31,669 nucleotides of DNA from Deferrisomatales bacterium (GCA_033551855.1 JAWSUI010000022.1:1-31669), one strand, 5' to 3'; positions 3,063 through 23,609 are shown, counted from the first letter of the stretch. Made by a program: numbers and translations. Notes: generated by a model not told the origin, from the sequence alone.

Positions 3063-3064
3063 GG

Positions 3065-4993: not shown

Positions 4994-5227
4994 TCAGCCG
5001 CCGGCCACCGGCGGGAAGACGCTCAGGGTGTCGCCGTCGCCGAGGGCTTGATCCGGTTGTGCGTGGCGACTGTTGACGAGGAGGATGCGGGGCTTGTCCC
5101 GAGGCACCTGAAACAGGTCGAGCACGTCCTGGACCGTCGCCCCGTCAGGGACTTCCGCCGCGTGGGGGCTTTGCCCTTGGGGCAGATAACTGCGCAGGCC
5201 GGCGAAAAACTTCAGATGGACGACCAC
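4994..5227 (-). CDS. moaD: MoaD/ThiS family sulfur carrier
   Basis: 77-aa ubiquitin-like protein (FFAGLR...DGDTLSVFPPVAGG) ending in Gly-Gly. GGAGG RBS. Directly downstream of AOR. Confidence 0.88.
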   Translation of the reverse strand: MVVHLKFFAGLRSYLPQGQSPHAAEVPDGATVQDVLDLFQVPRDKPRILLVNSRHAQPDQALGDGDTLSVFPPVAGG

Positions 5228-5251
5228 GGATCGCCTCCCGGATCAGCAGTC

Positions 5252-5278
5252 GGAGAGGGGGCCGGGGCCCCCCTCTCC
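5252..5278. repeat. GC-rich intergenic hairpin between aor and moaD
   Basis: 10-bp stem GGAGAGGGGG / CCCCCTCTCC. No U-tract follows, so it is more likely an mRNA-stabilising or attenuating hairpin than an intrinsic terminator. Confidence 0.5.
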
Positions 5279-5295
5279 AACCTCGGGCCGAGGGT

Positions 5296-7047
5296 CTACT
5301 GCACGAAGTTGAAGACCTGATCGAGCTCCTCGTCCGGCACGGTAAACACCGCATTGTGGGGCGGAAGGGGCTCGGTGCGCATCCAGTCCGGGAGCCGGTC
5401 GTGGGCCGCGGCAAAACCTGCGGCCAGGTTGAACTTGCGCTCCATGGAGAGGACCGTCTTTCCGAGCTCCACCACGTCGTCCACCTTGAGCTCGGTGCCG
5501 TAGAGGCCGTTGATCATCTCGCAGGCCTGGGGCAGGCCGTCGGGGTTGTCCAGCAGCGCGAAGGCCACGAAGAGGCACAGGCCCGTGGAGTCCACCGCTG
5601 CCGTGGCGATCTGGAGGTTGCGGCTCAAATCCACCTGCCCCTCGGGCTTCAAGGGATCCACGTAGCCCCCCACCTTGAGGATGTTGGTGGCGATGGCGTA
5701 GCCAGCGGTGTGGTCCGCCCCCTGGGTCGAGGTGGCGTAGGTGACGCCGATGCCCTGGATGGCGCGCGGCTCGTAGGCCGGCATGGCCTGGCCCTTCACG
5801 GTGGGAATGTGGTCCACGCCGAAACACCGGCCGACGGTATCGGCGCCGCACCCGAGGATGCGCCCGAGGGGCGTGCCCTTGCGGACCTCCTCCAGGAGCC
5901 GGATGGCCGCATCCGCGTCTCCGAACTTCGCCAGCCCGGCGTCCATCGCAACCCCGATGGCGGCCCCCATCTCGATGGTGTCGAGACCGATGTCGTCGTC
6001 CAGGTAGTCCATCCGGGCGATGGCGTCCAGGTCATCGATGCAGCAGTTGGTGCCGTGGGCCCAGATGGTCTCGTACTCGGGCCCCTTGGAGATGTAGTGC
6101 CCATCCTTGTCCGCGTAGATCCGCGAGCACTGGATGATGCACCCGGAGTGGCAGCCGTGGGGGAGCTTCCCGTCGCCCCCGCGCTTCAAGATCCGGTCGT
6201 GCTGCTCCTCGCCTGAGATCTTGGACGCGCCTTCGAAGCTCCCGAGCCGGAAGTTCTTGGTGGGGAGCCCGCCGGCCTCGTTGATGATGTTCTGGAGAAC
6301 GTTGGTACCGTAGGTGGGTAGCCCCTCACCGGTGACCGCGTGGTCCTTGAGGATCTTGGCGAAACTGCGCGAGGCCTCGCTCAGCCGGGCCTTGTCCTTG
6401 GGCTCCTTCATGGAGGTACCGTTGTCGTCGCACACGATGGCCTTGAGCCGCTTGGAGCCCATGAGCGCCCCCAGCCCTCCGCGGCCCGCGTGGCGGGTGG
6501 GCCGCAGCTCCGGGTCGGTGCAGGCGATGGAGGCTGCGGTGAGGCCCCACTCGCCCGCCATGCCGATGGTGATGTAGCCCACCTTCTTTTCGCCGTACTT
6601 GGCCGTGAGCTTCTTCACCGCGTCGTAGTTGCCGAGTTCTTTGAGCTCCGGGCTCTCCACCAGGGAGATCCCGTCCTTCTTGAGTACCAGGGTGTAGAGC
6701 TTGCTCGCGTCCTCGGGCTTGTCCTCGATGACCAGGGCCCGGATGCCGAGCCGGCCCAGGATCTGCCCGGGCTGGCCGCCGGCGTTGGACTCCTTGATCG
6801 TCCCGGTGAGCGGGCTCTTCCCGCCCACCGAGATCCGCCCCGACTGGACCGCCGAGGAGCCGCCCAGGAGCCCCGGGGCAAACACGAGCTTGTTCGTGGC
6901 ACCCAGCGGCGGGCAGGTGGGGGGCACTTCCTCGGAGACGACGGCCGAGGTCATGGCCCGGCCCCCGAACAGGGCCCACTTCTGGGGTAGCGGCTCCTCC
7001 GTGATCTTCCGGGTCCTCATGTTGACGCGCACGATCCGGTCTGCCAT
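5296..7047 (-). CDS. aor: Aldehyde:ferredoxin oxidoreductase (W/Mo-pterin, 4Fe-4S)
   Basis: Motifs KSPLTGTIKESNAGG, AGRGGLGALMGSKRLKAI, GCHSGCIIQC, GPEYET, GLDTIEMG and DSTGLCLF. 583 aa. Confidence 0.95.
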   Translation of the reverse strand: MADRIVRVNMRTRKITEEPLPQKWALFGGRAMTSAVVSEEVPPTCPPLGATNKLVFAPGLLGGSSAVQSGRISVGGKSPLTGTIKESNAGGQPGQILGRLGIRALVIEDKPEDASKLYTLVLKKDGISLVESPELKELGNYDAVKKLTAKYGEKKVGYITIGMAGEWGLTAASIACTDPELRPTRHAGRGGLGALMGSKRLKAIVCDDNGTSMKEPKDKARLSEASRSFAKILKDHAVTGEGLPTYGTNVLQNIINEAGGLPTKNFRLGSFEGASKISGEEQHDRILKRGGDGKLPHGCHSGCIIQCSRIYADKDGHYISKGPEYETIWAHGTNCCIDDLDAIARMDYLDDDIGLDTIEMGAAIGVAMDAGLAKFGDADAAIRLLEEVRKGTPLGRILGCGADTVGRCFGVDHIPTVKGQAMPAYEPRAIQGIGVTYATSTQGADHTAGYAIATNILKVGGYVDPLKPEGQVDLSRNLQIATAAVDSTGLCLFVAFALLDNPDGLPQACEMINGLYGTELKVDDVVELGKTVLSMERKFNLAAGFAAAHDRLPDWMRTEPLPPHNAVFTVPDEELDQVFNFVQ

Positions 7048-7112
7048 CTGACCCTCCTTTTCCCGTGGGATCGGGGTGACGAAACGCCGCGAGACCCGAC
7101 GCCGATTCGAGT

Positions 7113-7958
7113 CTACCCGAGATTCGCGGCCTGGCTAGGGGCAACCGACTCCACGGCGATTCCCAGGGTGGCCCGGAAGAGCCCCGGGACGCCGAAATCT
7201 TTGCTACCCGCCCCGTACCCCACGGCCTGCACCACCAGGGGGGGCATGGGGCCGAAGCCGGCGCAGAAGTGCCGCAGCAGCGCTGCGCCCGTGGGAGTGG
7301 TCAGCTCACCACGCACCCCGTCCGAGTAGGCGGGCACACCGCACAGGAGCTCCAGGGTGGCCGGCGCCGGAACCGGCAGGACCCCGTGGGCGCACCGCAC
7401 GGTGCCGCACCCCACGTGGATGGGGGAACACCGGGCGTCCTCCGCGCCGAGCTGGTGGAAGGCCGACGATGCCGCCACGATGTCGGCGATGGAGTCCAGG
7501 GCCCCCACCTCGTGGAAGTGCACCGCTTCCGGGGACACACCGTGCACCTTGCCCTCGGCCGCCCCGAGGAGCTCGAAAACCGCCACGGCGGCGGCGGCCA
7601 CAGGCCCGGGAAGCCCCGCCGCCCGGATCAGGGAGCAAATCTCGGGCAGCCCCCGGTGGGGGTGGCGATGGTGGTGGGCGCCGTGTCCGTGTCCGTGCCC
7701 CTGTCCATGCTCGTGCCCGTGCCCCCCGTCCGCTGGTTCGTCCACGGGGCGTCCGGTGCCCGGGGCGAGCACGTCGAACTTGGTCCCCACGAGACCCCGG
7801 CGCTCCACCTTGCGGGCCCGAAGCTCCAGGCCCTCGACCCCCAGGGAGGCCACGTGGCGTTTCACGGTCTCCAGGCTCGCCCCGAGGTCCAGTAGCGCGC
7901 CGACGAACATGTCGCCGCTCACGCCGGCACTCGCGTCGAAGTAAAGGATCCGCCTCAC
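7113..7958 (-). CDS. larC: Nickel insertase LarC, N-terminal portion only (281 aa)
   Basis: GTG 7958 overlaps the larB stop. Motifs YFDASAGVSGDM, His-rich insert, VHFHEVGALDSIADIV, CAHGVLPVPAPAT and GELTTPTGAALL. Stops before the usual C-terminal domain. Confidence 0.9.
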   Translation of the reverse strand: MRRILYFDASAGVSGDMFVGALLDLGASLETVKRHVASLGVEGLELRARKVERRGLVGTKFDVLAPGTGRPVDEPADGGHGHEHGQGHGHGHGAHHHRHPHRGLPEICSLIRAAGLPGPVAAAAVAVFELLGAAEGKVHGVSPEAVHFHEVGALDSIADIVAASSAFHQLGAEDARCSPIHVGCGTVRCAHGVLPVPAPATLELLCGVPAYSDGVRGELTTPTGAALLRHFCAGFGPMPPLVVQAVGYGAGSKDFGVPGLFRATLGIAVESVAPSQAANLG

Positions 7959-8731
7959 CGCTCCCCCTCCTGGCGTCGGCCGCGAAGGGCCAGCTTGTTG
8001 ATCATGTCCGCCTGGTAGGCGGCCCCGAAGCCGTTGTCGATGTTCACCACGCTGATCCCCGAAGCACAGGAGTTGAGCATGGCCAGGAGCGCCGTGATGC
8101 CCCCGAAGCTCGTTCCGTACCCGACGCTCGTGGGAACCGCGATGACCGGAACGTCCACCAGGCCTCCGATGACGGACGGAAGCGCCCCTTCCATCCCGGC
8201 CACGGCCACCACGCAGTTGGCCTGCCGGAGCACATCGCCGTGGGCGAAGAGCCGGTGGATCCCGGCCACCCCCACGTCGTAGACACGCTCCACCCGGCTC
8301 CCGAACACCTCCAGGGCCACGGCTGCCTCCTCGGCGACGGGCAGGTCCGAGGTCCCGGCCGCCGCGAGGGCCACCAGGCCCACAGGAGCCACGGTGTCTC
8401 GTCGCAGCTCCACGACCCGGCACAGCCCGTGGTAGCGGGCCTCCGGCACCCGATCCCGCACGGCCTCGGCCACGGCGGCGCTCGCCCGCGTGCAGAGCAC
8501 GTTGGGGTTGTGGCCGGCCAGCCGCCCGAAGATCTCCGCCACCTGCTCCGGCGTCTTTCCCTCCCCGTAGATCACCTCGGGGTAGCCGTTGCGCATGCGC
8601 CGGTGGTGGTCGATCTTCGCGAACCCCACATCCTCGAAGGAGAGGCTCTTGAGGCGGTCGAGCACGTCGTCGGTGGAGATCTCCCCCTGTTTCAGGCTCT
8701 CGAGCAGGTGGCGCAGGTGGTCAGGGGTCAT
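7955..8731 (-). CDS. larB: NPN cofactor biosynthesis carboxylase/hydrolase LarB
   Basis: Motifs FAKIDHHR..R.GYPEVIYGEGKT, AGTSDLPVAEEA, DVGVAGIHRL, AGMEGALPS, AVPTSVGYG and NSCASGISVVNIDNGFGAA. Confidence 0.96.
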   Translation of the reverse strand: MTPDHLRHLLESLKQGEISTDDVLDRLKSLSFEDVGFAKIDHHRRMRNGYPEVIYGEGKTPEQVAEIFGRLAGHNPNVLCTRASAAVAEAVRDRVPEARYHGLCRVVELRRDTVAPVGLVALAAAGTSDLPVAEEAAVALEVFGSRVERVYDVGVAGIHRLFAHGDVLRQANCVVAVAGMEGALPSVIGGLVDVPVIAVPTSVGYGTSFGGITALLAMLNSCASGISVVNIDNGFGAAYQADMINKLALRGRRQEGER

Positions 8732-8770
8732 GGTTGGCTCGTCGTCCGTTGTCCGTGGGGTTTTCCGACC

Positions 8771-8798
8771 GATTCACGATTCACCATTCACGACTCAC
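8771..8798. repeat. Heptamer tandem repeat (GATTCAC-like x4)
   Basis: GATTCAC GATTCAC CATTCAC GACTCAC, overlapping the larE stop codon. Confidence 0.7.
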
Positions 8799-9609
8799 GC
8801 TCCCCCAGCACCTCGTTCATGGCCCCGGTGCGGTAGCCCTGAAGGTCCAACGCCACGTAAGCGTAGCCGGCGGCCTTGACCGCGGCCACCACCCGGTCGC
8901 GCAGGCCGTTGGCCACCCGCTCGAATTCCTCCGGCCCCACCTCCAGGCGGGCCACGTCGCCGTGGTGGCGCACCCGGAGCACCCGCAGGCCGAGCTCCCG
9001 CAGGGCCTCCTCCGCCCGGCCCACCTGGGAGACCTTCTCCTTCGTGATGCGGACCCCGTAGGGGAAGCGCGACGAGAGGCACGCAAAGGCCGGCTTGTCC
9101 CAGGTGGGGAGGCCCAGGGCCCGGGAGAGCTCCCGGATGTCCTGCTTGGTGAGGCCGGCCTCGTCCAGGGGGCTGCGCACCCCCAACTCCCGGGCCGCCT
9201 GCCGCCCCGGTCGGTAATCTCCCCGGTCGTCGGTGTTGGTGCCGTCGAGCACGTGGGGCAGGCCCTCGGCGTCGGCCACCTCCCGCAGCTTCCCGAAGAG
9301 CTCCTTCTTGCAGAAGTAACAGCGGTTCTTCGGGTTGTCGGCAAACCCCGGCACGTCGAGCTCCTCCGACACGATGATCCGGTGCCGGGCCCCCAGGCTC
9401 CGGGCCAGCTCCTCGGCCTCCCGGCGCTCCCGTTCCGGGTAGGTCTCGGAGGTGGCCGTCACCCCCAGGACCCGGTCCCCCAGGACCTCCCGGGCCACGG
9501 CGAGGAGGAAGGTGGAGTCCACCCCCCCGGAGAACCCGACCACGGCGCCCCCCAGTTCGCGCAGGAGGCGAGTCAGGTGGTCGCGCTTGTGCTGGAGTGT
9601 GTGTTTCAT
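8788..9609 (-). CDS. larE: ATP-dependent sulfur transferase LarE
   Basis: PP-loop FSGGVDSTFL, RCYFCK, DGTN.DD.GDYRPG, ACLSSRFPYG, RVRHHG and LDLQGYRTG. Confidence 0.95.
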   Translation of the reverse strand: MKHTLQHKRDHLTRLLRELGGAVVGFSGGVDSTFLLAVAREVLGDRVLGVTATSETYPERERREAEELARSLGARHRIIVSEELDVPGFADNPKNRCYFCKKELFGKLREVADAEGLPHVLDGTNTDDRGDYRPGRQAARELGVRSPLDEAGLTKQDIRELSRALGLPTWDKPAFACLSSRFPYGVRITKEKVSQVGRAEEALRELGLRVLRVRHHGDVARLEVGPEEFERVANGLRDRVVAAVKAAGYAYVALDLQGYRTGAMNEVLGERES

Positions 9610-9654: not shown

Positions 9655-11109
9655 CTAGCCCCTCGCCGCTTGTTCCTGCCTCAGGCCCCGGGCGGGCCGG
9701 ACGGAAACCTGGGCCAGGTAGCTCCGGAAGGTCCCGTGCCGCAGACAGCCCCAGAAGACGCCCGCCCCGTAGGCCAGCTGCTCCCCGGTGTAGTAGAAGA
9801 GGAACGCCGGGTAACCCAGGCTCACCCGCCGCACCCGATGGTCCACGGCGGCCACGCCCAAGAGGAGCAGGAGCACCACCGCACCCAGCCGGGGGAAGAG
9901 CGCGGACGCCAGGAGCAGCGGCCACCCATAGTACCGGATGGCGTGGTACCCGACATAGTAGGCGAGACTCGCCGCCGCCCGGGCCCGGGAGGCGAGCGCC
10001 CGGGGCAGGCCCAACCCGAGCCCCACCCGCCGGAAGCGGGCCTGGGCCCGGGACGCATCCAGCAGCAGCACCAGCGCTGCCGCGAAGAGGGCGGTCCACC
10101 CCGCCCCCAGGAGGGCCGCCAGGCCACACCCCAGGACCGCGACAAGTCCCGAGGGCGCCGCCAACTTTTTGCGCCGCCGGGGGTGCCGGCCCTGGAGGAG
10201 CGCCTCCGATGTCCCGTACTCGAACCGGCGCCGCAGGAACGCCGCGAGGCGGTTTCGGTGCTCGTGGTAGACCCAGCCCCGCGGCACGTAGACGAGGCGA
10301 TAGCCCCGGTCCCGGAGGCGCCAGCTCAGGTCCACATCCTCCCCCACGTGCATCCCCGCCCGGAACCCGCCGGCCTCGCGGAAGGCGCTGCGCCGCACTA
10401 GGATGTTGCAGCTCGGCACGTAGAAGGTGTCGTCGCCGTCCCGGCCCGAGAGCTCCCGGTCCCCCAAGGAGAGGCTCGACATCCGCGCCTCGTACTGGTC
10501 TAGCCGGGTGGCACAGTGCATCCCCTCCACCCGCCCCCCCACCGCCCCCACCTCCGGGTCGGCGAAGCGGCCCACGAGCTCGGCGAGCCAGTCCGGGGCC
10601 GAGGTGCAGTCCGAGTCGATAAACGCCAGGAGCTCCCCCCGGGCCTCCCGGGCGCCCCGGTTGCGGGCCGAGGCGGGCCCGGCGCCGCACCCCCCGGAAG
10701 CAACCACCCGGGCCCCGTGGGCGCGCGCCACGGCCGGGCTCTCGTCCGTCGATCCGTCGTCCACCACGATCACCTCCAGGAGCTCTCGAGGGTAGCGCAG
10801 CCTCTCCAGGGAGGCGAGGCACCGTTCCAGCTCGTCCGCCCGGTCCTTGACCGGGATCACCACGGTCACGCTGGGCCGCGCCCCGGTCCCCGGGTCTTCC
10901 CCTGCCTGCCGCTCCAGGTATCCGGCCCGGGCCAGGGCCTCCAAGACGTGGGCCTCCCCTCGGCTCCCGCTCGAGAGCGCCCCTTCCCGGGAGAGGAGGC
11001 GGTAGAGGGCCTCGTTCACCCGAACCGCCCGCAGGGGCCGCTCGGCCAACAGGAACTTCCCCTCCTCGGTGGCGCGCAGCGTGACGCCGGGCGCGAGGGA
11101 GAAGCTCAC
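9655..11109 (-). CDS. mftF: Mycofactocin glycosyltransferase MftF (GT2)
   Basis: GTG 11109 overlaps the ETF-beta stop. Motifs VTVVIPVKDR, VVDDGS, GPASARN, AFIDSDC, SSLSLG, YVPSCN, MHVGEDVDL.WRL and RRFEYGTSEA.L..RHP, in mft context. Confidence 0.92.
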   Translation of the reverse strand: MSFSLAPGVTLRATEEGKFLLAERPLRAVRVNEALYRLLSREGALSSGSRGEAHVLEALARAGYLERQAGEDPGTGARPSVTVVIPVKDRADELERCLASLERLRYPRELLEVIVVDDGSTDESPAVARAHGARVVASGGCGAGPASARNRGAREARGELLAFIDSDCTSAPDWLAELVGRFADPEVGAVGGRVEGMHCATRLDQYEARMSSLSLGDRELSGRDGDDTFYVPSCNILVRRSAFREAGGFRAGMHVGEDVDLSWRLRDRGYRLVYVPRGWVYHEHRNRLAAFLRRRFEYGTSEALLQGRHPRRRKKLAAPSGLVAVLGCGLAALLGAGWTALFAAALVLLLDASRAQARFRRVGLGLGLPRALASRARAAASLAYYVGYHAIRYYGWPLLLASALFPRLGAVVLLLLLGVAAVDHRVRRVSLGYPAFLFYYTGEQLAYGAGVFWGCLRHGTFRSYLAQVSVRPARGLRQEQAARG

Positions 11110-11993
11110 GGCGCCCCCCCGGGCACGAGGCCCTCCCGACAGAGGATCCGAAACAGCCCCTCGGCGGCCTCGTCGGGGCTGCCGAAGTGCATCACCCCAG
11201 CCCGGGCCTGGATGCCCCCGGAGAGCAGGGCTGCCACCCGCTCGTGGCCCGGCAGGTCCGCGGCCGGCGTCGGCGCGCGGATGGGCTGGGGCCTCGGCAG
11301 CGAAACACCGTCGCAGCGCAGCAAGGCCCCCTTTTCCCCCACCTCCCACAGCGGCAGGTTCAGCTCGGGAAGTCCCCAGAGCTCCACCTGCGCCTCGGAA
11401 GCGGCGAGAACCCCCTCCAGGTCCGGGTAGCGGGGCACGGCGGACCCGGCCTCGAAGAGGACCGCGCAGGGCAGCGGCACCGAGATGCGCTGGCGTGCAC
11501 CCCGATCGCCCTTGCGCAGCACCTCGGCGTTGGCCCCGGCGACCCGGCAGCCCACCGCGGCGTTCACCACCGGCAGGCCCGACCGGGCCGCCGCCAGGGC
11601 CGGACTGGGCTCGTCCCCCCGGTCCGCGAGGCGCGACCCCGTCGCCACCAGCCCGGGCCGCAGGATCTCCAGAACCCGAGCCAAGAGGCGCCCATCGGCG
11701 ACCGCATCACCCCCCTCCAGGCCGTGGTCCCAGACGCGGATGGCGCGGCTCGCGCCCATGGCCAGGGCCAGGCGCAGGCCGTCCTCCAGGCGCTCGGGTC
11801 CGACCCCCAAGGCGGTCACCGGCCCGCACCCCAGGGCCAGGGCCGCCTCCAGGGCCTCCAGGTCGGCCGGGTTCATCATCCGGCGCAGGCCCCGGTCCCG
11901 CAGGGCGGCCCCACCCTCGGCGGGGTCTGCCGGCGGTCGCGGGTCGACAACCTCCCGCAGGAGGACGAGCACGTCGCGCTGTTGCATCGCCAT
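11106..11993 (-). CDS. etfB: Electron transfer flavoprotein beta subunit (FixA/EtfB-like, divergent)
   Basis: Motifs MNPADLEALEAAL, LRLALAMGASRAIRV and PRYPDL; adjacent to fixX, fixC and etfA. Confidence 0.85.
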   Translation of the reverse strand: MAMQQRDVLVLLREVVDPRPPADPAEGGAALRDRGLRRMMNPADLEALEAALALGCGPVTALGVGPERLEDGLRLALAMGASRAIRVWDHGLEGGDAVADGRLLARVLEILRPGLVATGSRLADRGDEPSPALAAARSGLPVVNAAVGCRVAGANAEVLRKGDRGARQRISVPLPCAVLFEAGSAVPRYPDLEGVLAASEAQVELWGLPELNLPLWEVGEKGALLRCDGVSLPRPQPIRAPTPAADLPGHERVAALLSGGIQARAGVMHFGSPDEAAEGLFRILCREGLVPGGAP

Positions 11994-12017: not shown

Positions 12018-12302
12018 TCACGTCATCCGGAAGCTGACTCCGAACCCGCCCCGGGGATAGCGCCACCTCTCGAAGTGGCCGTCGCAGACCACGTAGCAGG
12101 TGCCGCACTCCAGGCAGCCGTCGTAGACAAAGGTGAGCTTCCGGTCCTCCTCGGACCAAGTGTAGCACCGGGCCGGGCAGGTGGTGGTGCACCCGCGGTG
12201 GGTGCAGGCGGCGCAGGCCGCAGGGTCGACGACGATGTGGGGCTCCCGGTCGATGGAGAAGCTGGTGACGTCGAACAGGTCGTCGATGTTGACGTAGCTC
12301 AT
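12018..12302 (-). CDS. fixX: Ferredoxin-like protein FixX
   Basis: ATG 12302 overlaps the fixC stop. Motifs PHIVV, C..C....C...CPA.CY, GCLECGTC.VVC and WRYPRGGFGV. Confidence 0.92.
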   Translation of the reverse strand: MSYVNIDDLFDVTSFSIDREPHIVVDPAACAACTHRGCTTTCPARCYTWSEEDRKLTFVYDGCLECGTCYVVCDGHFERWRYPRGGFGVSFRMT

Positions 12303-13597: not shown

Positions 13598-14601
13598 CGG
13601 GCACCTCCGGCGGCGGTCCTCACCAGCTCCAGGAGCCGGGGCAGGACCTCCCGCGCGTCCGCCACGAACCCCTCGTCCGAGTTGGGGAACAGGGGGGCCT
13701 TGGGGTCCACGTTGAGCGACACGATGGCCCTGGAGTCCTTGACCCCCCCCACGTGGTGCATGGACCCGGAGATTCCCACCCCCAGGTAGAATCGCGGCGT
13801 CACGGTCTTGCCGGTCTGGCCGATCATCCGCTCGAAGCCCGCAAACCCCTGGTCGTAGACCGGGCGGGTCACCCCCAGGGAGGCGTGCAGGAGCCGCGAG
13901 AGCTCCCGGAGCCGCTCGTAGGTCTCCCGGTCCAGGCCCTTGCCGGCGCAGAAGATCACCTCGGCCTCGGACACGTCGACGGTCTGGGGGTCGGGGGGGA
14001 TGCGCTCGACCACCCGCACCCGCTTCGCGCCCGCCAGCGCCTCGAAGGCCCAGCTCACCCGCCGGGGCTCGCTCGGCGCCATCGAGGGCAGCACCACGGC
14101 GCCCAGGGCCTGGGGCAGCACGGTGAGGACGAGCGGGGTGCCGTCGGCCCAGACGCGGTGCTCCGCCACGCGGGGCCCGAGGACCCGGCGGGTCAGGCGC
14201 AGGCCCTCCGCCAGGGGCTCAAAGGCGAGCGCCTCGGTGAAGAGCGCCGCCCCCAGGCGCGCCGCCACCAGGGGAGCCAGGGCCGAGCCGGCGTCGGTGT
14301 GGGCCAGCAGCACGCACGCGGCGCCCACGTGCCGGGCCGCGCCGGCCACGGCGTCCGCCAGGGCCTCGGGGTAGTCGGCCAGGGGCTCGCCGGAGGCGAT
14401 CTCCAAGATCTCGGGCACGCCGTAGGCCCCGAAGGGAGCGTAGGCGGCCGGGTCCGGCGGGGGCAGGCAGACGGCCCGCCAGGGCGCCTTCAGGGCCTGG
14501 GCGAGCTTGCCGCTCTCGGCCAGGATGCCCTTGCCCGCCTCGTCCAGCTCCCCCTCGGGGAACGGCGCGTAGACCAGGAACTCGCCGGTGGCCGGGGACA
14601 T
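13594..14601 (-). CDS. etfA: Electron transfer flavoprotein alpha subunit (FixB/EtfA)
   Basis: C-terminal part of the 1016-aa ORF, ATG 14601. Motifs VSEAEVIFCAGKG, TRP, MIGQTGKTVTP, GISGSMHHVGG and NVDPKAPLF. Confidence 0.92.
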   Translation of the reverse strand: MSPATGEFLVYAPFPEGELDEAGKGILAESGKLAQALKAPWRAVCLPPPDPAAYAPFGAYGVPEILEIASGEPLADYPEALADAVAGAARHVGAACVLLAHTDAGSALAPLVAARLGAALFTEALAFEPLAEGLRLTRRVLGPRVAEHRVWADGTPLVLTVLPQALGAVVLPSMAPSEPRRVSWAFEALAGAKRVRVVERIPPDPQTVDVSEAEVIFCAGKGLDRETYERLRELSRLLHASLGVTRPVYDQGFAGFERMIGQTGKTVTPRFYLGVGISGSMHHVGGVKDSRAIVSLNVDPKAPLFPNSDEGFVADAREVLPRLLELVRTAAGGAR

Positions 14602-16568: not shown

Positions 16569-17644
16569 GGCGTTGCTCCTTCGGAGCCGTGACGGGTGAC
16601 GAGTGACAGGTGACGCGCGGCCGAGGGCTCGGAGACCGCGGCAACGCAACGCTCGAGGCACTCGGGGTCTCCGCCGTCCAGGCCCCGGCGTAGGTGGTAC
16701 GCCACCGCGGGGCAGCCTCCGTGGCAGTGGTCGAACCGCCCGCAGTCCTCGCAGGAGCGGATTCGCAGGCTCCGGAAGGACGCGAACACCCCCGAGGCGT
16801 CCCAGATCTCCCGGAAGGGGGCCTCCCGCAGCGACCCGGCCTCGAACTCCGGGCTCTGGAGGAAGGCGCAGGGGTAGACGCCGCCCTCCGGGCCCACGCA
16901 GCAGGTGAGCTTCGCCGCGCCGCAGAGGTTGAGGCCCAGCCCCTGGCGCTGCTGTCGCGTGAGGGAGAAGAAACTGTCCCCGGTGCGGACGTCGCCGCTC
17001 GCGGAGAGCCACTCCGAGAAGGCGAGGAGCTGCTCGGCCGAGGGTCGAAGCTCCTCCCAGTGCAGGGCTCCCCGCCCCGAGGGGCGCAGGCGGCTCACCC
17101 GGAGGGAGACGCCGAGGGCGGCGGCGAGCCGGTGAAGCTCCGGGATCTCGGACGCGTTCCCGCCCGTGAGCACGGTGTTGATGCTCGTGGGGATCGGGCT
17201 CTCGCCCAGGAGGCGCAGGGCGGCCAGCGCCCGGACGTACGTTCCCGCCCCCCGGAGCGCGTCGCAGGTCGGCCCGCGGGCGCCGTCGAGGCTCACCTGG
17301 ACCGCCACCAGGCCCGACGCCGAGAGCTGCTCCACCCGCCCGGCGTCCAGGAGGGTGCCGTTGGTGGAGATGCAGGTGACGATCCCCCGGTCGTGGCACG
17401 CGGCCAGAATCTCCTCGAAGTCCGGGCGCAGGAAGGGCTCCCCCCCTCCGAAGTTCACCTGAAAGACCCGGGCCGCGCAGAGCTGTTCCACCAGGTCCAA
17501 GGCCTCGGCCGTGGAGAGCTCCCGCGCCGCCGGGGCCCCCGACGCCGACAGGCAGTGGCGGCAGCGCAGGTTGCAGGCGAGCGTCACCTCCCAGGTGAGG
17601 TTCACCGGGGCCCCCAGGCCGCGCTCAACGAACCGGTTGCTCAC
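16565..17644 (-). CDS. mftC: Mycofactocin radical SAM/SPASM maturase MftC
   Basis: GLGAPVNLTWEVTLACNLRCRHCLS (CxxxCxxC), GGGEP and VQVSLDGA. SPASM cysteines CGAAKLTC..YPC..C..C.....C.GGC..DPEC. Next to mftAB. Confidence 0.95.
   Translation of the reverse strand: MSNRFVERGLGAPVNLTWEVTLACNLRCRHCLSASGAPAARELSTAEALDLVEQLCAARVFQVNFGGGEPFLRPDFEEILAACHDRGIVTCISTNGTLLDAGRVEQLSASGLVAVQVSLDGARGPTCDALRGAGTYVRALAALRLLGESPIPTSINTVLTGGNASEIPELHRLAAALGVSLRVSRLRPSGRGALHWEELRPSAEQLLAFSEWLSASGDVRTGDSFFSLTRQQRQGLGLNLCGAAKLTCCVGPEGGVYPCAFLQSPEFEAGSLREAPFREIWDASGVFASFRSLRIRSCEDCGRFDHCHGGCPAVAYHLRRGLDGGDPECLERCVAAVSEPSAARHLSLVTRHGSEGATP
16589..16616. repeat. Heptamer tandem repeat (GTGACNN x4) in the 3' tail of mftC
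   Basis: GTGACGG GTGACGA GTGACAG GTGACGC. Confidence 0.7.
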
Positions 17645-17888
17645 GCAGGAACCCCTTCTCGGCCAGGGTCGCGAGCAGCCTCGCCAGGCGAGCCGCCCCG
17701 GGCGGGACCCCCCTTCCCGCCACAGGGCCCCGGCCCCCCTCGGCGGTCACGCCAGCCTGGAGGTCCGACGGCTCCAGGAGGTCGCCCGTCTCCGCGAAGA
17801 GGAGCCGCGGCCCCCGAAGGTCGTAGAAGAGGAGCCCGAAGGCCTCCTTGCGGACCCGGCAGGCGGGGTGGAGGGTGTAGAGGGGCAC
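17625..17888 (-). CDS. mftB: Mycofactocin RRE chaperone MftB
   Basis: LHP..RVRKEAFGLLFYD....RL.F and L..LAEKG. Sits between mftA and mftC; its GTG abuts the mftA stop. Confidence 0.9.
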   Translation of the reverse strand: MPLYTLHPACRVRKEAFGLLFYDLRGPRLLFAETGDLLEPSDLQAGVTAEGGRGPVAGRGVPPGAARLARLLATLAEKGFLREQPVR

Positions 17889-18017
17889 TCAGTACACCCC
17901 GCAGATCCCGTCGATGGCCAGCTCCTCGATGGCGATCTCCTCGAGGATCTCGGGTTCCTCGGCGCCCTCTTCGCGGGGCTCTTCCGGCACGCTCCCCAGC
18001 TTCGCGATCTCTTCCAT
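17889..18017 (-). CDS. mftA: Mycofactocin precursor peptide MftA (42 aa), absent from the ORF track
   Basis: Manual translation: MEEIAKLGSVPEEPREEGAEEPEILEEIAIEELAIDGICGVY*. Acidic leader plus IDGxCGVY core. GAGGAG RBS upstream. Confidence 0.96.
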   Translation of the reverse strand: MEEIAKLGSVPEEPREEGAEEPEILEEIAIEELAIDGICGVY

Positions 18018-18078: not shown

Positions 18079-18888
18079 CTACCCGGCCGCGGCGGTCCAG
18101 CCGCTGTCCACGGTGATCAAATTTCCGGTGACGCACCGGCTCTCGGGCAGGCACAGCCACAGCACCGCCTGGGCCACGTCGTCGGGGGTGATCTCCCGGT
18201 CCTTGAAGAGGTGGCCCTCGCAGAACTGCTCCTTGGCCTCCTCCTGCTCCATCCCGAAGTGCTCCGCCAGGCCCTTCATCATGTCGGTCCAGACCGTGCC
18301 CGGGCAGACGACGTTCACGTTGACGTTGTGGTCGGCCACCTCCATGGCGAGGCTCTTGGTGAACCCGATGATGCCGTGCTTGGCCGCGCAGTAGTGCCCC
18401 CCCATGCCGAAGCCTCGCTGGCCGCCCACGCTCGAGATGGCCACCACCTTGCCGGAGTGGGCCGCGATCATGTGGGGCACGGCGTAGTGGCACAGGAGAA
18501 ACGTGCCCTTCAGGTGGGTGTCGAGGGTGTCGTCCCAGGTGGCCTCGTCCATGTCGACCACGGGCACGAGGCTGGTGACGCCGGCGTTGGCCACGGCGAT
18601 GTCGATCCTTCCGAAGGTCTCCAGGACCTTCGCCACCGCAGCCTTCACCTGCGCGTCCACGCGCACGTCGCACACGATCCCGACGGACCTCACCCCCAGC
18701 TCCTCGATCTCCGTCACCGCCTTGTCCAGGGCGGCCCGGGTGGAGAGCCTGTAGGGCACGGTGGGGATATCCGCGCAGATGTCGGCGAGCGCCACGTGGC
18801 ACCCCTCGGCGGCCAGAGCCTTCGCGATGGCGAGGCCGTTGCCCCGCGCCCCTCCGGTGACGAGGGCGACTTGATCTTTGAGTTTCAT
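18079..18888 (-). CDS. Mycofactocin-coupled SDR family oxidoreductase
   Basis: TGGARGNG, the DIC-containing insertion (ADICADIPTVPYRLST) typical of mycofactocin-linked SDRs, VANAG and HYCAAKHG. Immediately upstream of mftA. Confidence 0.9.
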   Translation of the reverse strand: MKLKDQVALVTGGARGNGLAIAKALAAEGCHVALADICADIPTVPYRLSTRAALDKAVTEIEELGVRSVGIVCDVRVDAQVKAAVAKVLETFGRIDIAVANAGVTSLVPVVDMDEATWDDTLDTHLKGTFLLCHYAVPHMIAAHSGKVVAISSVGGQRGFGMGGHYCAAKHGIIGFTKSLAMEVADHNVNVNVVCPGTVWTDMMKGLAEHFGMEQEEAKEQFCEGHLFKDREITPDDVAQAVLWLCLPESRCVTGNLITVDSGWTAAAG

Positions 18889-18994: not shown

Positions 18995-19357
18995 TCACAC
19001 CGCCTGGCGCAGCTCGTCCAGGTCAAAGACCTCCCCGATGCGCGCGAGACTCCCGTTGAGCTCCTGGAGGTCGTCCTTCAGCGAGTCGAGCCCGTACTCC
19101 TGGACCTGGAAGTCGAGCTGCCCTTCCAGCCCGTACACCAGGTAGAGCAGGTTGAGCAGGTCCACGCATGCCGGGCGAGCCATGAGCTCCGGGAAGTACC
19201 GATCCAGGAGCCCGGCCGCGTCCAGTTGCCCGAGGCCCCACTCCAGGGTCTCCCGGTCCACCTTCTGGAGCATCACCCCCCTCAGCAGCACCGCGGCCCG
19301 AACTCCCATGCGGGTGATGTCCTCCACCATTTCCCGGTCGGTCTGCAGGTCTGTCAT
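18995..19357 (-). CDS. Hypothetical protein (about 120 aa, acidic, helical)
   Basis: Start chosen at MTDLQTDRE (GAGG 6 nt upstream). Protein-like composition, GC3-biased codons, co-oriented in the operon. Confidence 0.75.
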   Translation of the reverse strand: MTDLQTDREMVEDITRMGVRAAVLLRGVMLQKVDRETLEWGLGQLDAAGLLDRYFPELMARPACVDLLNLLYLVYGLEGQLDFQVQEYGLDSLKDDLQELNGSLARIGEVFDLDELRQAV

Positions 19358-19369
19358 GGTCATCCTCAC

Positions 19370-19433: not shown

Positions 19434-19436
19434 CAC

Positions 19437-19763
19437 CTACGTCATCCGCACCTTCATGGTCTTCACGTGCTGGATGATCTTCTCGATGCTGCCGAAGAAG
19501 GGGTTGCACAGACTGCCCACTTCCGAGCCCTCCTTGCACGCCGCCACCTTGCTGTGGATCTCTTCCAGCTCGACCTTGAGCCGCTCCATGTCCTCGGTGC
19601 CCTTCTGGGTCTTGAAGTAGAGCTTGGGGGCCAGGGTCTCGAGCTCGTTGGCCAGGGCCTCCAGCTTGTCCTTGAAGGCCCCGAAGGAACCCCCCTGGGC
19701 CATCTTCCGGAACTCCTCGGCCATCTCCCGTGCGTGGTGGGTACCCATCTTCTGCTCCGACAT
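19437..19763 (-). CDS. Hypothetical protein (108 aa, Lys/Glu-rich, helical)
   Basis: GGGAG RBS and strongly biased codons (AAG, GAG, TTC). No recognisable family. Confidence 0.8.
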   Translation of the reverse strand: MSEQKMGTHHAREMAEEFRKMAQGGSFGAFKDKLEALANELETLAPKLYFKTQKGTEDMERLKVELEEIHSKVAACKEGSEVGSLCNPFFGSIEKIIQHVKTMKVRMT

Positions 19764-19802
19764 ACCGGATTCTCCCTTCCGATCTAGGGCGCCGAAGGCG
19801 CG

Positions 19803-20789
19803 TCAACCGTGGTGGTGATGGTGGTGGCCGCAACCTCCCTCGGCGGGCGCGCCCTGGCCGTGGCCGTGCTCTTTGTGGCGGTCGTGATCACGGTGCCCGG
19901 AGCCGGGGCAGGGCTTGCTCTCCTCCACCGGCGCGTCGGGCACGGACTTGGGTGCCATCTGACCTGCCAGGGTCTGGGCGATCTGCACGAAGGCCCGGGC
20001 CGTGACGCTCTCCGGGTGGAGGTTCACGATGGGCACCCCGGCGTCCGCCGACTCGGAGAAGAGCGGGTCGATGGGGATCGAGCCCAGGAAGGGGACCTCC
20101 ATCATCCGGGCCAGGCCCTGGCCCTTGTCCTTGCCGAAGAGGTTCACCGTGTCGCCGCAGCACCGGCAGGTGTAGACGCTCATGTTCTCCACCAGCCCCA
20201 GGACCTTGGCCCCCAGGGTCAGGGCCGCGTTGATGGCCTTGGAGCACACCAGGGTGGAGACCTCCTGGGGAGTGGTCACGATGACCACGCCGTCGAGATC
20301 CGGGATGGACTTCAGGATGGCGATGGGCTCGTCGCCCGTGCCCGGGGGCAGGTCGATCAGGAGGTAGTCCAGGCCGCCCCACTTGGCCGCCGAGAGGAGC
20401 TGGCGGATGGTGCGGCTCTTGGCCTGGCCGCGCCACATCACCGGGGTCATGTCCCCCGGCCAGAAGAGCGCCACCGAGAGCGCCTTGATCCCGGAGTCGG
20501 TGACGACCGGATCGAGCCAGAACCCGCCGTTGAGCTTCGCCTCCTTCTTGATCCCGAACATCTTCGGGGTGCTCGGCCCGTGGAGGTCGGCGTCGAACAC
20601 CCCCACCTGGTGGCCCGCGTTCTTGAGCGCTGCGGCCAGATTCACGGTGGTGGCGGTCTTCCCCACCCCGCCCTTGCCAGAGAGCACCGCGATCTTGTAC
20701 TTCACGTGCTTGAGGGCCTCGACGATCGCCCCCTCGCTGCGGAGCTGCTCGCGCTGCTTCTCGTGGAATTCGCTCTGGTTGAGTTCCAT
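19803..20789 (-). CDS. apbC: Mrp/NBP35 (ApbC) Fe-S carrier ATPase with His-rich C-terminal tail
   Basis: ATG 20789 with AGGAG RBS. Motifs SGKGGVGKT, DADLHGPS, WRG, DYLLIDLPPGTGDE, VTTPQ and GLVENMS..CRCC. Tail GHRDHDRHKEHGHG...GCGHHHHHHG. Confidence 0.92.
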   Translation of the reverse strand: MELNQSEFHEKQREQLRSEGAIVEALKHVKYKIAVLSGKGGVGKTATTVNLAAALKNAGHQVGVFDADLHGPSTPKMFGIKKEAKLNGGFWLDPVVTDSGIKALSVALFWPGDMTPVMWRGQAKSRTIRQLLSAAKWGGLDYLLIDLPPGTGDEPIAILKSIPDLDGVVIVTTPQEVSTLVCSKAINAALTLGAKVLGLVENMSVYTCRCCGDTVNLFGKDKGQGLARMMEVPFLGSIPIDPLFSESADAGVPIVNLHPESVTARAFVQIAQTLAGQMAPKSVPDAPVEESKPCPGSGHRDHDRHKEHGHGQGAPAEGGCGHHHHHHG

Positions 20790-20810
20790 GCTCTTCTCCT
20801 GTGCTCCGGC

Positions 20811-20867
20811 GTAGGGTGGGGCTGGCCCCACCTCAGGTCGCTACCGGCGGGGCAAGCCCCGCCCTAC
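20811..20867. repeat. GTAG-type REP doublet (REPIN-like)
   Basis: GTAGGGTGGGGCTGGCCCCACC (20811-20832) and its inverted copy GTAGGGCGGGGCTTGCCCCGCC (20867-20846). Confidence 0.75.
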
Positions 20868-21802
20868 GAGAGGCGCCGTAGGGTGTGCCCCCGCGCGCCG
20901 AGGCCGAGGGCCTCCGCCTCCCCGAGGACCTCCGCAAACTCGATCTGCGTCACCTGGCGCACCGCCCCAGGCCTCTCCGCCTCCAGAACGCCCCAGGTGG
21001 CCGCATCCAGGGCCAGCGGGTCCCGGGAAGCCAGGAACCCGAGGTTCCGGACGACGGGCCCGGCGCTGAAGGGGAAGTACTCGGGCTGGGGGGTCACGTC
21101 CCAGAGGTAGTTCACGTACAGCACCCGCTCGCTCACAGCGAAACGCACCGCCCGGTGTGCTTCCAGCGCCCGCCCCCAGAGCCCCCCCAGAGTCGCCCGG
21201 TCGGGCCGGACCCCGTTGAACGGGTAGGGGTCCACCCCGGCCAGCACCCGGGTCCGCTCCCGGCCCACCAGGCACTCGAACCCGCCGTTCCAGAGGGCGC
21301 CGCTCAGACCGAAGAGCGGGTGGAGGGTCACGTGAGAGAGGAACCAGAGCGTGTCGGCGCGGCACACCGCGGTGCCCACCTCGACCCCCCCCAGCTCCGA
21401 GGCGGCGAGTCCCACGGAGAAGAGGTCGCCCTCGTCCCCGCTGTAACCGCCGTTGATCGCGAAGTTGCCGCCCAGTGTGTCGGTGGCGTAGCCGCTGGCC
21501 CGCGCCACCTCCAGGAAGGACTGGCCCTTGGCGCCGTTCCAGTAGTCCACGAGCTTGAGGCCGTCGCACAGGGTGACCCGCTTCCCGCTGACGGACTCGG
21601 CCAGAGCCACGGCCGGTCGGTAGAAGACGGGCCGCAACCCGTATGGGTAGCCCTCCTCCGCCGTGTTTACCTTGAGCGTCACCCGCACGCCTTGCTCGAG
21701 GCCCACTGCGGCACCGGCTGCGTCCAGGAGTCGGCCCACCTTCTGGGGCACCGAGTTGTCGAAGGCCATGCCTTCCGCGTCGACCCACACCACTTCGGCC
21801 AT
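20864..21802 (-). CDS. DUF362-family protein, degenerate paralogue lacking the ferredoxin domain
   Basis: ATG 21802 (MAEVVWVDA). Aligns by eye to the upstream DUF362 protein (VTLKVN, LRP, GYSGDE, LSHVTLH, DVTP, LAS.DPLALD.AT, LGLG.R). Confidence 0.8.
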   Translation of the reverse strand: MAEVVWVDAEGMAFDNSVPQKVGRLLDAAGAAVGLEQGVRVTLKVNTAEEGYPYGLRPVFYRPAVALAESVSGKRVTLCDGLKLVDYWNGAKGQSFLEVARASGYATDTLGGNFAINGGYSGDEGDLFSVGLAASELGGVEVGTAVCRADTLWFLSHVTLHPLFGLSGALWNGGFECLVGRERTRVLAGVDPYPFNGVRPDRATLGGLWGRALEAHRAVRFAVSERVLYVNYLWDVTPQPEYFPFSAGPVVRNLGFLASRDPLALDAATWGVLEAERPGAVRQVTQIEFAEVLGEAEALGLGARGHTLRRLS

Positions 21803-21879
21803 GTGCACGTCCCTTCGCGCGACCATCCCGGGGAGGCAGGGCGAGAGGCCCCGGCGGCCTCCCGCCCTCGAGCGAGGCA

Positions 21880-23388
21880 CTAGCCGGGCTTCACCCCCTT
21901 GAAGGGGTCCATCTTCTTCCACTCGTTGTTCACCCAGTCCTTGTTGTACGCGGCCCGGTTGAACGGCATGACCTCGGTGGCGAGGTCGTGTTTGTAGAAG
22001 ACATCGCGCAGCCGGATGGTGGTGGGCCGATGGTTCTCGATCCCACCCCCGCGGATCTGCCACTTCATGGCGTTCTCCGGGCTCAGCACCGGCTCGTGGT
22101 GGATGAGCTTGTACTGGCGGGTGCCGAGGCCGATCTTCTCGCCTGCGGCCTGGGTAATGCGCGGGCTGAAGCCGTTGACGAGGCGGAACTTGTCCTCGCC
22201 CTGCTTGCCGCCCTTCTCGTCGAGGACCGACCCGGGGCTCACCGGCGCCTGGTCGATGAGATCCAGGGTGGCCTCCTCGACGGCCATCAGATCCTTGCCG
22301 GCGACGATCCCCACGTCCGGGCAGACGGCCTTGTTGGCCCAGGGGAAGCAGTCGCACTCGGGCACGACGTCGATGGCGCAGTTGATGAAGCCCACCTTGC
22401 CCCGGTCGAAGCACTTGAGGGCCCCCAGGGCGGCGTCGGCGTGGGCGATCATGGCGTTGGGGAAGTAGTTCTCCTCGAAGGTGATGCCGGTCATCCCCGA
22501 GAAGATGCAGGTGACCTGGCACGAGTAGCAGAGCCGGCAGCGCTCCGGGTACCACTCCTTGCCGTGGGCGAACACCTTGTGGGCGCTGCGCGGGCAGGAG
22601 TCGTCGCACATCTGGTGAAACTTGCAGGCCTGCCCAGGACAGTTGTCGGTGAACTTCGGCCAGCCGATGGCGTCGTGGGGGTCGCCCCAGTGGGCCAGGT
22701 GGGTGATGTACTTGCCCCTCTTGGACTGGCAGCCGATGCCGAGCTGCTTGAGGATGCCGCCGTACATGGTGATGGCATGCCCGCGGGCGTGCGCGAGGAC
22801 GATCATCGCGTCGGCTTCCGCGATGGCCCGCCCGATGTAGGTCTCCTTAAGGATGTTGCCCTCGGGGATCTCTACCCGATAGTCGTCCTCGCCGGAGTAC
22901 CCGTCGGCGATGAGCACCGGGCACCCGAAGGTGGCGTCGGTGTAGCCGTGGCGGATGGCGCCCTCCATCTGGTACTGGGAGATCGCCATGCTGTTGTAGG
23001 TGTGGTACGAAAGGGTGGTGTCGTTCACCACGTAGGGGTGACCCCCGCACGCCCTCACCTCTTCCACGATGGCGGCGATGTACTCGGGCCGCAGGATGGC
23101 CGTGCGGTTCCACTCGCCGTAGTGGATCTTGATCGCGACCTCGTCGCCCTTCTGGAAGCACTCGTTGAGCTTGGCTTCGTAGAAGAGGTCCTTGGTCTTG
23201 CAGATCAAGGACTCCGTCCAGTTCGTCGCGTTGGCGTCGGCGTACCAGACCGGAGCCGGGCCCTTCGCGGTGAAGGGGCCCCACTTCTTCTTCGTGGGAT
23301 TCCAGCTCTTCTTTTGGTAGTCGGCCCGCCCTCCTTCGACGGGCTTCTTGAGCTCGTGCCACTTGGTCGGTTCTGTCTTGTGCGCCAT
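21880..23388 (-). CDS. DUF362-family Fe-S protein with internal ferredoxin-type domain; candidate NPN-dependent enzyme
   Basis: ATG 23388 after an AAGGAAGGTGA RBS. Motifs VAIKIHYGE, LRP, IADG..G.D, HARGH..MYGG.LKQLG.GC.S..GK...H, C..C..C...C clusters, DVVPECDC and DVGI.AG.D..A.E.A. Confidence 0.88.
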   Translation of the reverse strand: MAHKTEPTKWHELKKPVEGGRADYQKKSWNPTKKKWGPFTAKGPAPVWYADANATNWTESLICKTKDLFYEAKLNECFQKGDEVAIKIHYGEWNRTAILRPEYIAAIVEEVRACGGHPYVVNDTTLSYHTYNSMAISQYQMEGAIRHGYTDATFGCPVLIADGYSGEDDYRVEIPEGNILKETYIGRAIAEADAMIVLAHARGHAITMYGGILKQLGIGCQSKRGKYITHLAHWGDPHDAIGWPKFTDNCPGQACKFHQMCDDSCPRSAHKVFAHGKEWYPERCRLCYSCQVTCIFSGMTGITFEENYFPNAMIAHADAALGALKCFDRGKVGFINCAIDVVPECDCFPWANKAVCPDVGIVAGKDLMAVEEATLDLIDQAPVSPGSVLDEKGGKQGEDKFRLVNGFSPRITQAAGEKIGLGTRQYKLIHHEPVLSPENAMKWQIRGGGIENHRPTTIRLRDVFYKHDLATEVMPFNRAAYNKDWVNNEWKKMDPFKGVKPG

Positions 23389-23593
23389 TCGCTTCACCTT
23401 CCTTTCTGCAAGAGAGGGGGAGTCTCACCCAGGGTCCTCGCACGGCCGGGACGCCTCGGCACCGGGGCCCCGCCCTGTTCCCGGTGCTGCGGCACGGTTC
23501 GACCCTCCTTTCCGTCCCGGTGTCGCCGGCCCCGGCCCGGACATGGCCCGGCACGGCCCTCGCCCGGGCCAACCGCTGGCTGACGGAGCGTTT

Positions 23594-23609
23594 TGCAACC
23601 GGCGTTCCA
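23594..23609 (-). promoter_or_regulatory. Sigma-54 (-24/-12) promoter of the DUF362-mft-lar-aor operon
   Basis: Minus strand TGGAACGCCGGTTGCA = GG-N10-GC, about 200 bp upstream of the DUF362 start. A GAFTGA activator is encoded nearby. Confidence 0.8.

Follow-up and report, generated by a model that had tools for sequence, protein, structure and literature searches.

A conserved operon that joins mycofactocin, nickel-pincer cofactor, electron transfer flavoprotein and aldehyde oxidoreductase genes

Here we report a run of 20 genes, read from 23388 to 4994 on the minus strand of a 31,669-nucleotide stretch of DNA from a Deferrisomatales bacterium (GCA_033551855.1, JAWSUI010000022.1:1-31669; the whole stretch is called the window), in which the genes for the redox cofactor mycofactocin stand together with genes for the nickel-pincer cofactor (NPN), an electron transfer flavoprotein (ETF) with FixC- and FixX-like partners, and a predicted tungstopterin-type aldehyde:ferredoxin oxidoreductase (AOR). 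The operon is real, it is conserved in other genomes, and no description of it was found in the literature searched, most subscription papers being outside the scope of that search. Gene content, synteny, fold, conserved residues and absent genes are observed, and from them we infer the steps of a mechanism. The best overall explanation, which as a whole we hold only tentatively, is an operon for anaerobic alcohol oxidation in which the flavoenzyme OYE2, ETF and FixCX would replace the mycofactocin-oxidizing protein MftG, and in which the product of the first gene, DUF362a, would pass hydride between mycofactocin and iron-sulfur carriers.

Gene calling and family profiles over the whole window place the genes in the order DUF362a, DUF362b, Mrp/ApbC, orf108, orf121, a short-chain dehydrogenase/reductase (SDR), mftA, mftB, mftC, OYE2, etfA, fixC, fixX, etfB, mftF, larE, larB, larC, aor and moaD. 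Eight of the 19 junctions abut or overlap: the mftA/mftB gap is 0, mftB/mftC overlap by 20 nt, mftC/OYE2 by 1 or 4, OYE2/etfA by 1, and etfA/fixC, fixC/fixX, etfB/mftF and larB/larC by 4 nt each; the other 11 are gaps of 24-106 nt. A reading of this DNA from sequence alone (the sequence-only reading) had proposed a sigma-54 operon of about 20 co-oriented genes with overlapping stop and start codons, the etf and fix genes nested within the mft genes and larEBC between mftF and aor, and the map bears this out. The promoter candidate is a sigma-54 (-24/-12) site, TGGAAC-N5-TTGC, at 23609-23595 (minus strand), 207 nt before DUF362a. Taken by itself, the window holds such sites at chance level (2 matches, 1.5 expected), but in 22 of 62 loci a site recurs no more than 450 nt ahead of DUF362a, whereas none of the 62 reversed sequences and 1.8% of shuffles have one. 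Scans of the window gave no sigma-70 site and seven terminator-like sites where 6.9 were expected. The 20 genes would be read as one transcript. Metatranscriptome support was considered and set aside: it came from three runs of one study, with relatives at a word share of 0.05-0.06. The contigs of these runs fall in 30, 23 and 30 of the 30 bins, which can neither rank genes nor prove a single transcript, with DNA carry-over possible.

The arrangement recurs well beyond this genome. When 401 genomes of the phylum were scanned, members of the DUF362a clade (E < 1e-200) were found in eight and mftC above cut-off in 17. Seven of the eight clade genomes carry mftC within about 6 kb of DUF362a; in the eighth, an 81% complete assembly, the contig stops before mftC could appear. 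Among loci with enough flank, not dereplicated and with one contig present three times, the genes downstream of DUF362a include DUF362b (55/61), Mrp (50/54), SDR (32/38), mftC (27/34) and larB (22/27, two of the misses being one flank limit and one upstream position). The closest relatives of the operon are in Deferrisomatales, Deltaproteobacteria and Thermodesulfobacteriota records, and two Actinomycetota records (L056, L058) have the same genes with larEBC shifted ahead of the SDR. Close homologues occur in the cultured anaerobes Deferrisoma camini (P0160) and Pelotomaculum thermopropionicum SI (P0043), and a plasmid search returned only distant DUF362s. The mft-lar-DUF362 linkage, which the sequence-only reading had staked on not being unique to this genome, is present in other genomes and is conserved.

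Comparison of these loci points to two arrangements that the window combines. Type A, found in Geobacter, Desulfuromonas and Anaeromyxobacter records, consists of mftABC-OYE2-etfA-fixCX-etfB-mftF, often with an AOR gene; these clusters contain iron or zinc alcohol dehydrogenase (Fe-ADH, Zn-ADH) genes and lack lar and DUF362. Among the 32 OYE2 loci with 6.5 kb downstream, 26 have no lar genes. Fifteen of those 26 also have 6.5 kb upstream; DUF362 and the SDR are absent from all 15, and 10 of them contain an ADH-like gene. Type B consists of DUF362a-b, Mrp, orf108, orf121, SDR, mftABC(F), larEBC and AOR, with no internal OYE2 block. In a quick tree, the careful search being unfinished, the window's MftC groups with type A (Geobacter/Anaeromyxobacter; support 100), and 23 type B MftCs stand separately (support 97); we claim no direction of transfer from it. 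The window's DUF362a is 80-86% identical to those of type B loci whose MftCs are only 52-57% identical to its own. The operon is a mosaic, with a type A block running from mftA to mftF, OYE2, ETF and FixCX included, set in a DUF362-SDR-lar-AOR scaffold. The view of the four modules as one unit therefore stands only in part: all are in the window, but the union is not obligate, as the lar-less OYE2 loci show, and obligate linkage is contradicted by most DUF362/lar/mft loci, which have no adjoining OYE2/ETF block, and by L235 and L246, which have no mft nearby.

The regulators beside the operon point to alcohol as its signal. Divergent from it, on the plus strand, lie genes for an ErcA-like Fe-ADH (23953..25125; its best model is NF041833, at 423 bits against a cut-off of 550), a probable alcohol sensor, for a PAS histidine kinase (25122..26336) whose gene overlaps the stop of the ErcA-like gene, and for a sigma-54-dependent response regulator (26336..27691; family profiles); a second sigma-54-like site (23881..23895, plus strand) faces them. 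An ErcA-like gene lies within 7 kb upstream of the block in 16 of the 23 loci with enough flank. In Pseudomonas, an Fe-ADH/kinase pair is required for induction of alcohol oxidation genes (PMC12997753). The window resembles the Pseudomonas ErcA/YiaY-kinase and ped cluster (PMC12997753) in having an Fe-ADH-like gene co-transcribed with a kinase, and in regulators that adjoin genes for a peptide-derived redox cofactor and for alcohol oxidation. It differs in its sigma-54 activator, in mycofactocin in place of pyrroloquinoline quinone, in enzymes predicted to be cytoplasmic and anaerobic, and in an ErcA model match below cut-off. Gene content and this co-travelling regulator support well the anaerobic alcohol-to-acid pathway suggested earlier, and we consider a role in alcohol oxidation quite probable.

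The mycofactocin set is incomplete in a consistent way. MftA (17889..18017; a variant type with the C-terminus GICGVY, ending Val-Tyr; NF040489 42/30, TIGR03969 39/25, NCBIfam scores being written as bits/cut-off bits), the chaperone MftB (17625..17888; 59/33), the radical SAM maturase MftC (16565..17644; 339/265) and the glycosyltransferase MftF (9655..11109; 406/280) are all over cut-off, as is the mycofactocin-coupled SDR (18079..18888; NF040490 481/385), whose closest solved relatives are mycobacterial carveol dehydrogenases. The other maturation proteins were searched for in 18 genomes, 17 of them with mftC. MftD was found in none of the 18 at E 1e-10, including the 100% complete genome of the window, nor in five further genomes; MftG was found in none of the 18 at E 1e-20, and MftE over cut-off in none. 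The window's genome does have two unlinked creatininase homologues, at 97 and 91 bits against an MftE cut-off of 172. MftD is also missing from mft-bearing genomes outside this DUF362 clade, among them the complete Anaeromyxobacter oryzae record, in which no DUF362-ferredoxin match whatever was found. Compared with the mycobacterial system (mftABCDEF, mftG), then, the window shares MftA, MftB, MftC, MftF and the coupled SDR over cut-off, and differs in lacking MftD, MftG and an MftE over cut-off and in having OYE2-ETF-FixCX, AOR, lar and DUF362 genes and sigma-54/ErcA control.

OYE2 (14601..16568; TIGR03997 946/793) is a FadH/trimethylamine-dehydrogenase-like flavo-iron-sulfur enzyme. Among the solved structures related to it over the full length are those of trimethylamine and histamine dehydrogenases, enzymes that donate electrons to ETF. 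It is followed by EtfA (13594..14601; mft_etfA 142/240), a FixC-like FAD oxidoreductase (12299..13597; FixC 345/610), a FixX-like ferredoxin (12018..12302; FixX 65/166) and EtfB (11106..11993; mft_etfB 77/200), each below its cut-off. OYE2 is over cut-off in 13 of the 18 genomes and partial or near it in three more; of the other two, G308 has none and G369, a 100% complete assembly in 460 contigs that is of the DUF362/lar type, has distant matches only. MftD makes the ketoamide that is the redox centre of mycofactocin (E0' -255 mV), and MftG re-oxidizes the cofactor; MftG is absent from about 25% of mftC genomes, and its substitute there is a stated open question (PMC11778925). Because MftG is missing here, because OYE2 is kin to the amine dehydrogenases and because the replacement is open (PMC11778925), OYE2-ETF-FixCX is a natural stand-in for MftG, and we lean towards the view that it re-oxidizes mycofactocin in its place; OYE2 is a candidate stand-in for MftG and/or MftD. 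Adjacent pairs of OYE genes occur at L133 and L135-L138, where there may be one for each job. At L135 and L137 the ETF genes are followed not by FixCX but by one gene for a multiheme cytochrome and another for a heterodisulfide-reductase-like CCG protein (at L135 by annotation).

The operon ends with the AOR gene (5296..7047; AFOR_N and AFOR_C domains) and that for a MoaD/ThiS sulfur carrier (4994..5227; family profiles). The AOR matches PDB 9MQX, 8C0Z and 1AOR over its full length (E 7e-98 to 1e-74). This match and the MoaD neighbour liken it to the tungsten aldehyde:ferredoxin oxidoreductases, from which it differs in having no adjoining ferredoxin or flavin subunit gene; its metal and substrate are predicted.

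DUF362a (21880..23388; 502 aa), the candidate NPN/iron-sulfur oxidoreductase, is predicted (pLDDT 93) to have a LarA fold into which a ferredoxin-like insert with conserved cysteines is set at about residues 243-306. The model matches five LarA-family structures at Z 14.2-17.9, the next match being at 6.3 (7S91: Z 17.9, root-mean-square deviation 2.9, 216 aligned; 5HUQ: Z 16.5, 3.4 and 224), and the top 19 Foldseek hits agree with that fold. A gap-free alignment of residues 192-230 with LarA 162-200 pairs H204, K214 and H230 with H174, K184 and H200, the catalytic and NPN-binding residues of LarA (PMC7583248); in a 98-row alignment both histidines are invariant and K214 is conserved in at least 90%. 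DUF362 and LarA share Pfam clan CL0471 (PMC11770544). The likeness to the LarA superfamily and its larBCE genes (PF09861; PDB 5HUQ, 9EIA, 7S91) thus extends over fold, the three residues and the adjacent larE, larB and larC1, and DUF362a differs in its 10-15% identity, its ferredoxin insert, its degenerate partner gene and a predicted net redox reaction in place of racemization. It also resembles NphT, an NPN-dependent hydride transferase (PMC13524815), as a non-LarA client marked by lar adjacency, a His/Lys signature and intermolecular hydride transfer; NphT, unlike DUF362a, is an aldo-keto reductase barrel without iron-sulfur clusters (PMC13524815). DUF362b (20864..21802; 312 aa) also keeps the LarA fold (Z 17.3, predicted model) and has no iron-sulfur insert, which was lost in this lineage. 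Each of the 12 complete partner copies in the alignment has W, V, F, Y, L or C in place of the NPN-tethering lysine, that of the window having Trp, and the nickel-ligand histidine is replaced in the window's type, so that DUF362b is a probable non-catalytic partner; the predicted DUF362a-DUF362b complex, with a score of 0.02 and a mark of 0.32, counts neither way. We judge it likely that DUF362a binds a nickel-pincer cofactor, and it is probably a new user of that cofactor, in candidate form.

The lar genes of the operon encode the sulfur transferase LarE (8788..9609; 338/150) and LarB (7955..8731; 293/175), each the sole copy found in the assembly, and a LarC (7113..7958; 207/90) that consists of the His-rich nickel-insertion half, LarC1, only (Pfam positions 1-234 of 375), the CTP-binding LarC2 half being absent. 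LarC1 inserts nickel and LarC2 binds CTP (PMC13510736). The LarC1-only form recurs in close relatives and in the Actinomycetota records, and L112-L114 have the gene at full length. A LarC2-bearing gene lies elsewhere in the window's genome, and 8 of 10 further genomes have one too; the copies in the window's genome and in L295 have lost the His motif, and those in L280-L282 keep it. On its sequence, the second larC of the window's genome (contig C58, 17880-19010), which lacks the LarC1 His motif and has a seemingly intact C-terminal half, may complement the operon's LarC1 in trans. In a FastTree phylogeny the LarBs from these operons share a branch with three others and are separated from most housekeeping LarBs, and of the 10 genomes among the 401 that have two larB copies, five are among the eight clade genomes. 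At least three different interleaved orders of lar and mft genes occur (the window, the L181 type, and L056/L058).

In the mechanism we propose, the ErcA-like alcohol sensor, kinase and activator would switch on the sigma-54 operon for anaerobic oxidation of an alcohol to an acid. Judging by its family, the SDR would oxidize the alcohol and pass the hydride to mycofactocin, and the AOR would oxidize the aldehyde. OYE2 would re-oxidize reduced mycofactocin, and the electrons would reach quinone by way of ETF and FixCX (-255 to -74 mV), a route that would replace the absent MftG and perhaps MftD. LarE, LarB and LarC1, with LarC2 supplied from elsewhere, would make NPN for DUF362a, and Mrp would load its iron-sulfur clusters. 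The part of which we are least sure is that DUF362a with DUF362b may be a converter between two-electron and one-electron chemistry, whose NPN would exchange hydride with the keto/hydroxy-amide carbon of mycofactocin and whose ferredoxin insert would trade single electrons with AOR or ferredoxin. We favour this hydride exchange because LarA chemistry acts on a like carbon, that of an alpha-hydroxy/keto carbonyl (PMC11851776), and because NPN can carry hydride from one molecule to another, butanal being among the acceptors (PMC13524815). That mycofactocin and NPN are chemically linked in a direct way is something we infer, and that mycofactocin is the redox partner of DUF362a is a possibility that we ourselves rather doubt. 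Since type A clusters work without DUF362a, it would be an accessory and not an obligate component.

Several observations weigh against this account of DUF362a. The profile match between DUF362a and LarA is weak (hhalign probability 7%), and the alignment is gapped and weak around D72, R75, H108 and K298 of LarA, which stay unmapped; DUF362a matches PF04015 only, with no match to Lar_N (PF09861), and a PDB sequence search gave nothing below E 0.77. The His-Lys-His triad is common to the 370-aa DUF362-ferredoxin family, present in 250 of the 401 genomes at E 1e-80, and therefore argues for NPN use by the family and not for a link to mycofactocin. As to that family, larB is present in 236 of the 250 genomes that have it against 115 of the 151 that do not, the 14 exceptions being draft assemblies, and Fisher p-values for this association overstate it, kin genomes not being independent. 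LarB occurs in 351 of the 401 genomes; genome-level lar co-occurrence was therefore rejected as evidence, and only linkage is informative. The window's genome has two ordinary LarA homologues, which weakens a dedicated lar role in this assembly: with the operon's larB and larE as sole copies, the lar genes have other clients. Type A clusters often contain an AOR 60% identical to that of the window, and they have no lar gene (26 of 32 loci) and no DUF362 or SDR (0 of 15), so that neither mycofactocin nor this AOR requires DUF362a. Finally, no mft gene is in view at L235 and L246, both of which contain DUF362a-b, Mrp and lar, nor at L237, L238 and L244. In L244 and L246 the DUF362a-b/Mrp genes lie beside hydrogenase-like, lipoate-ligase and AOR genes, and lar genes are present in L246.

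These points bear on the competing explanations. DUF362a might itself be the main dehydrogenase for alcohols or 2-hydroxy compounds, its NPN taking the substrate hydride and its iron-sulfur insert passing electrons to ferredoxin, with mycofactocin confined to a parallel branch as the partner of the SDR alone. In keeping with this, DUF362a is the first gene and among the most conserved (80-86% identity where MftC has 52-57%), and L235 combines an ErcA regulator with DUF362a-b, Mrp and lar although no mft gene is in view there. Members of a sister DUF362 clade (36-40% identity) also stand directly before AOR in all nine such loci of L120-L125 and L127-L129, and likewise in L126, L252, L254 and L255, with no mft; the AOR beside that clade differs from the window's. 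Oxidation of ethanol with a ferredoxin-type cluster as acceptor is uphill, however, and the tight link of the DUF362a clade to SDR and mftC would go unexplained. Even with the NphT precedent (PMC13524815), we think this unlikely. Less likely still is that the modules are merely co-regulated, a mosaic under one alcohol-responsive promoter whose lar genes serve LarA and DUF362 proteins that never touch mycofactocin: the mosaic history, the occurrence of each block without the other and the two LarA homologues beside a single larB/larE agree with it, and the interleaving of lar and mft in at least three orders and the extra larB copy retained in five of eight clade genomes speak against it.

Two further roles tie DUF362a more closely to mycofactocin itself. 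Replacement of the missing MftD, by NPN-dependent deamination of AHDP, or of MftE, by release of the core, would account for the absence of MftD (0/18 and 0/5) and of MftE over cut-off (0/18), and PMC13524815 cites an ornithine cyclodeaminase that uses the nickel-pincer cofactor. Substitution for MftD by DUF362 is disfavoured because of the type A contrast, MftD being missing also where DUF362 is, as in Anaeromyxobacter oryzae, and OYE2, as kin of amine dehydrogenases, is the more general candidate; we regard this role as improbable. We give slightly less credence to a mycofactocinol epimerase, in which DUF362a would carry out LarA-type hidden redox at the hydroxy-amide carbon and OYE2 would then re-oxidize the stereoisomer made by the SDR. 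That would be the canonical NPN reaction (PMC11851776), and DUF362/lar does accompany the SDR and not the Fe-/Zn-ADH clusters (0/15), but the conserved ferredoxin cysteines would be superfluous, some loci show no mft and one genome no OYE2, and at L138 an SDR (53%) adjoins OYE2 in the absence of DUF362a.

Nothing in the literature searched joins mycofactocin with the nickel-pincer cofactor, in line with the sequence-only reading, which had known of no described functional link. Clusters of mft genes were already listed in Geobacter, Pelotomaculum and Desulfotomaculum (Haft 2011, PMC3023750), and the available part of that text contains neither 'nickel' nor 'electron transfer flavoprotein'. DUF362 appears with the nickel-pincer cofactor only as an outgroup (PMC11770544); it is unmentioned in the available text of PMC13524815 and 12 of its 17 supplements, as are the operon's partner genes in the portion of PMC13328260, on tungsten enzymes, that was available. 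That DUF362a founds a nickel-pincer/iron-sulfur oxidoreductase class, converting hydride to single electrons, coupling mycofactocin to ferredoxin or AOR and being the first to join both cofactors, seems to us doubtful. Were it so, the common DUF362-ferredoxin proteins (250/401 genomes) would be a main and overlooked NPN user in anaerobes. An NPN enzyme wired to iron-sulfur clusters would take the cofactor beyond hidden redox and hydride shuttling into net electron transfer. Two open questions become testable: what re-oxidizes and matures mycofactocin where MftG and MftD are absent, for which OYE2-ETF-FixCX is the candidate, and which proteins other than LarA use NPN, for which the candidate is DUF362a. 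The distinctive points of the window are its hybrid character, with the type A OYE2/ETF block, and its split LarC.

The remaining operon genes encode an Mrp/ApbC iron-sulfur carrier ATPase with a His/Cys-rich tail (19803..20789; family profiles), orf108 (19437..19763; four-helix) and orf121 (18995..19363, start 19363 or 19357; helical), the last two conserved (orf108 by atlas search and alignment) and family-less, atlas searches having returned no family for either. In orf108 and 44 homologues the four-helix body is followed by a conserved C-terminal VRMT tail, a conserved free C-terminus that suggests plugging into a partner or processing.

Among the related loci, stand-alone extra copies of DUF362a without DUF362b occur at L115, L205, L206, L207, L213 and L236, some of them near aldehyde dehydrogenase or sensor genes. 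The sister DUF362 loci (L120-L129, L252, L254, L255) continue with a small ORF, MoaD and an extended SDR, and one cluster cysteine of that clade is Val; larBC near L120, L121 and L124 was considered as a link and rejected, these loci being from one genus with a single full-length copy and with unrelated genes between. Type A loci L008, L039, L043, L049 and L063 often have genes for a MoxR-type AAA ATPase and a CoxE-like vWA protein by the Fe-ADH genes, some with a second radical SAM/SPASM gene after mftF. Type B loci also encode a winged-helix-like protein, possibly a metal sensor, in which a Cys/His cluster is conserved (L112:13287-13616 and 15 similar loci); its gene is absent from the window. 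In the window, a pair of HEAT-repeat and HD-domain genes (1797-4852, minus strand) begins 141 nt past moaD on the same strand and, not being seen in related loci, is probably outside the system. Just past the regulators, at 28071-28343 (plus strand), a 90-aa protein weakly matches the SCO4226 nickel-binding family (E 8e-4).

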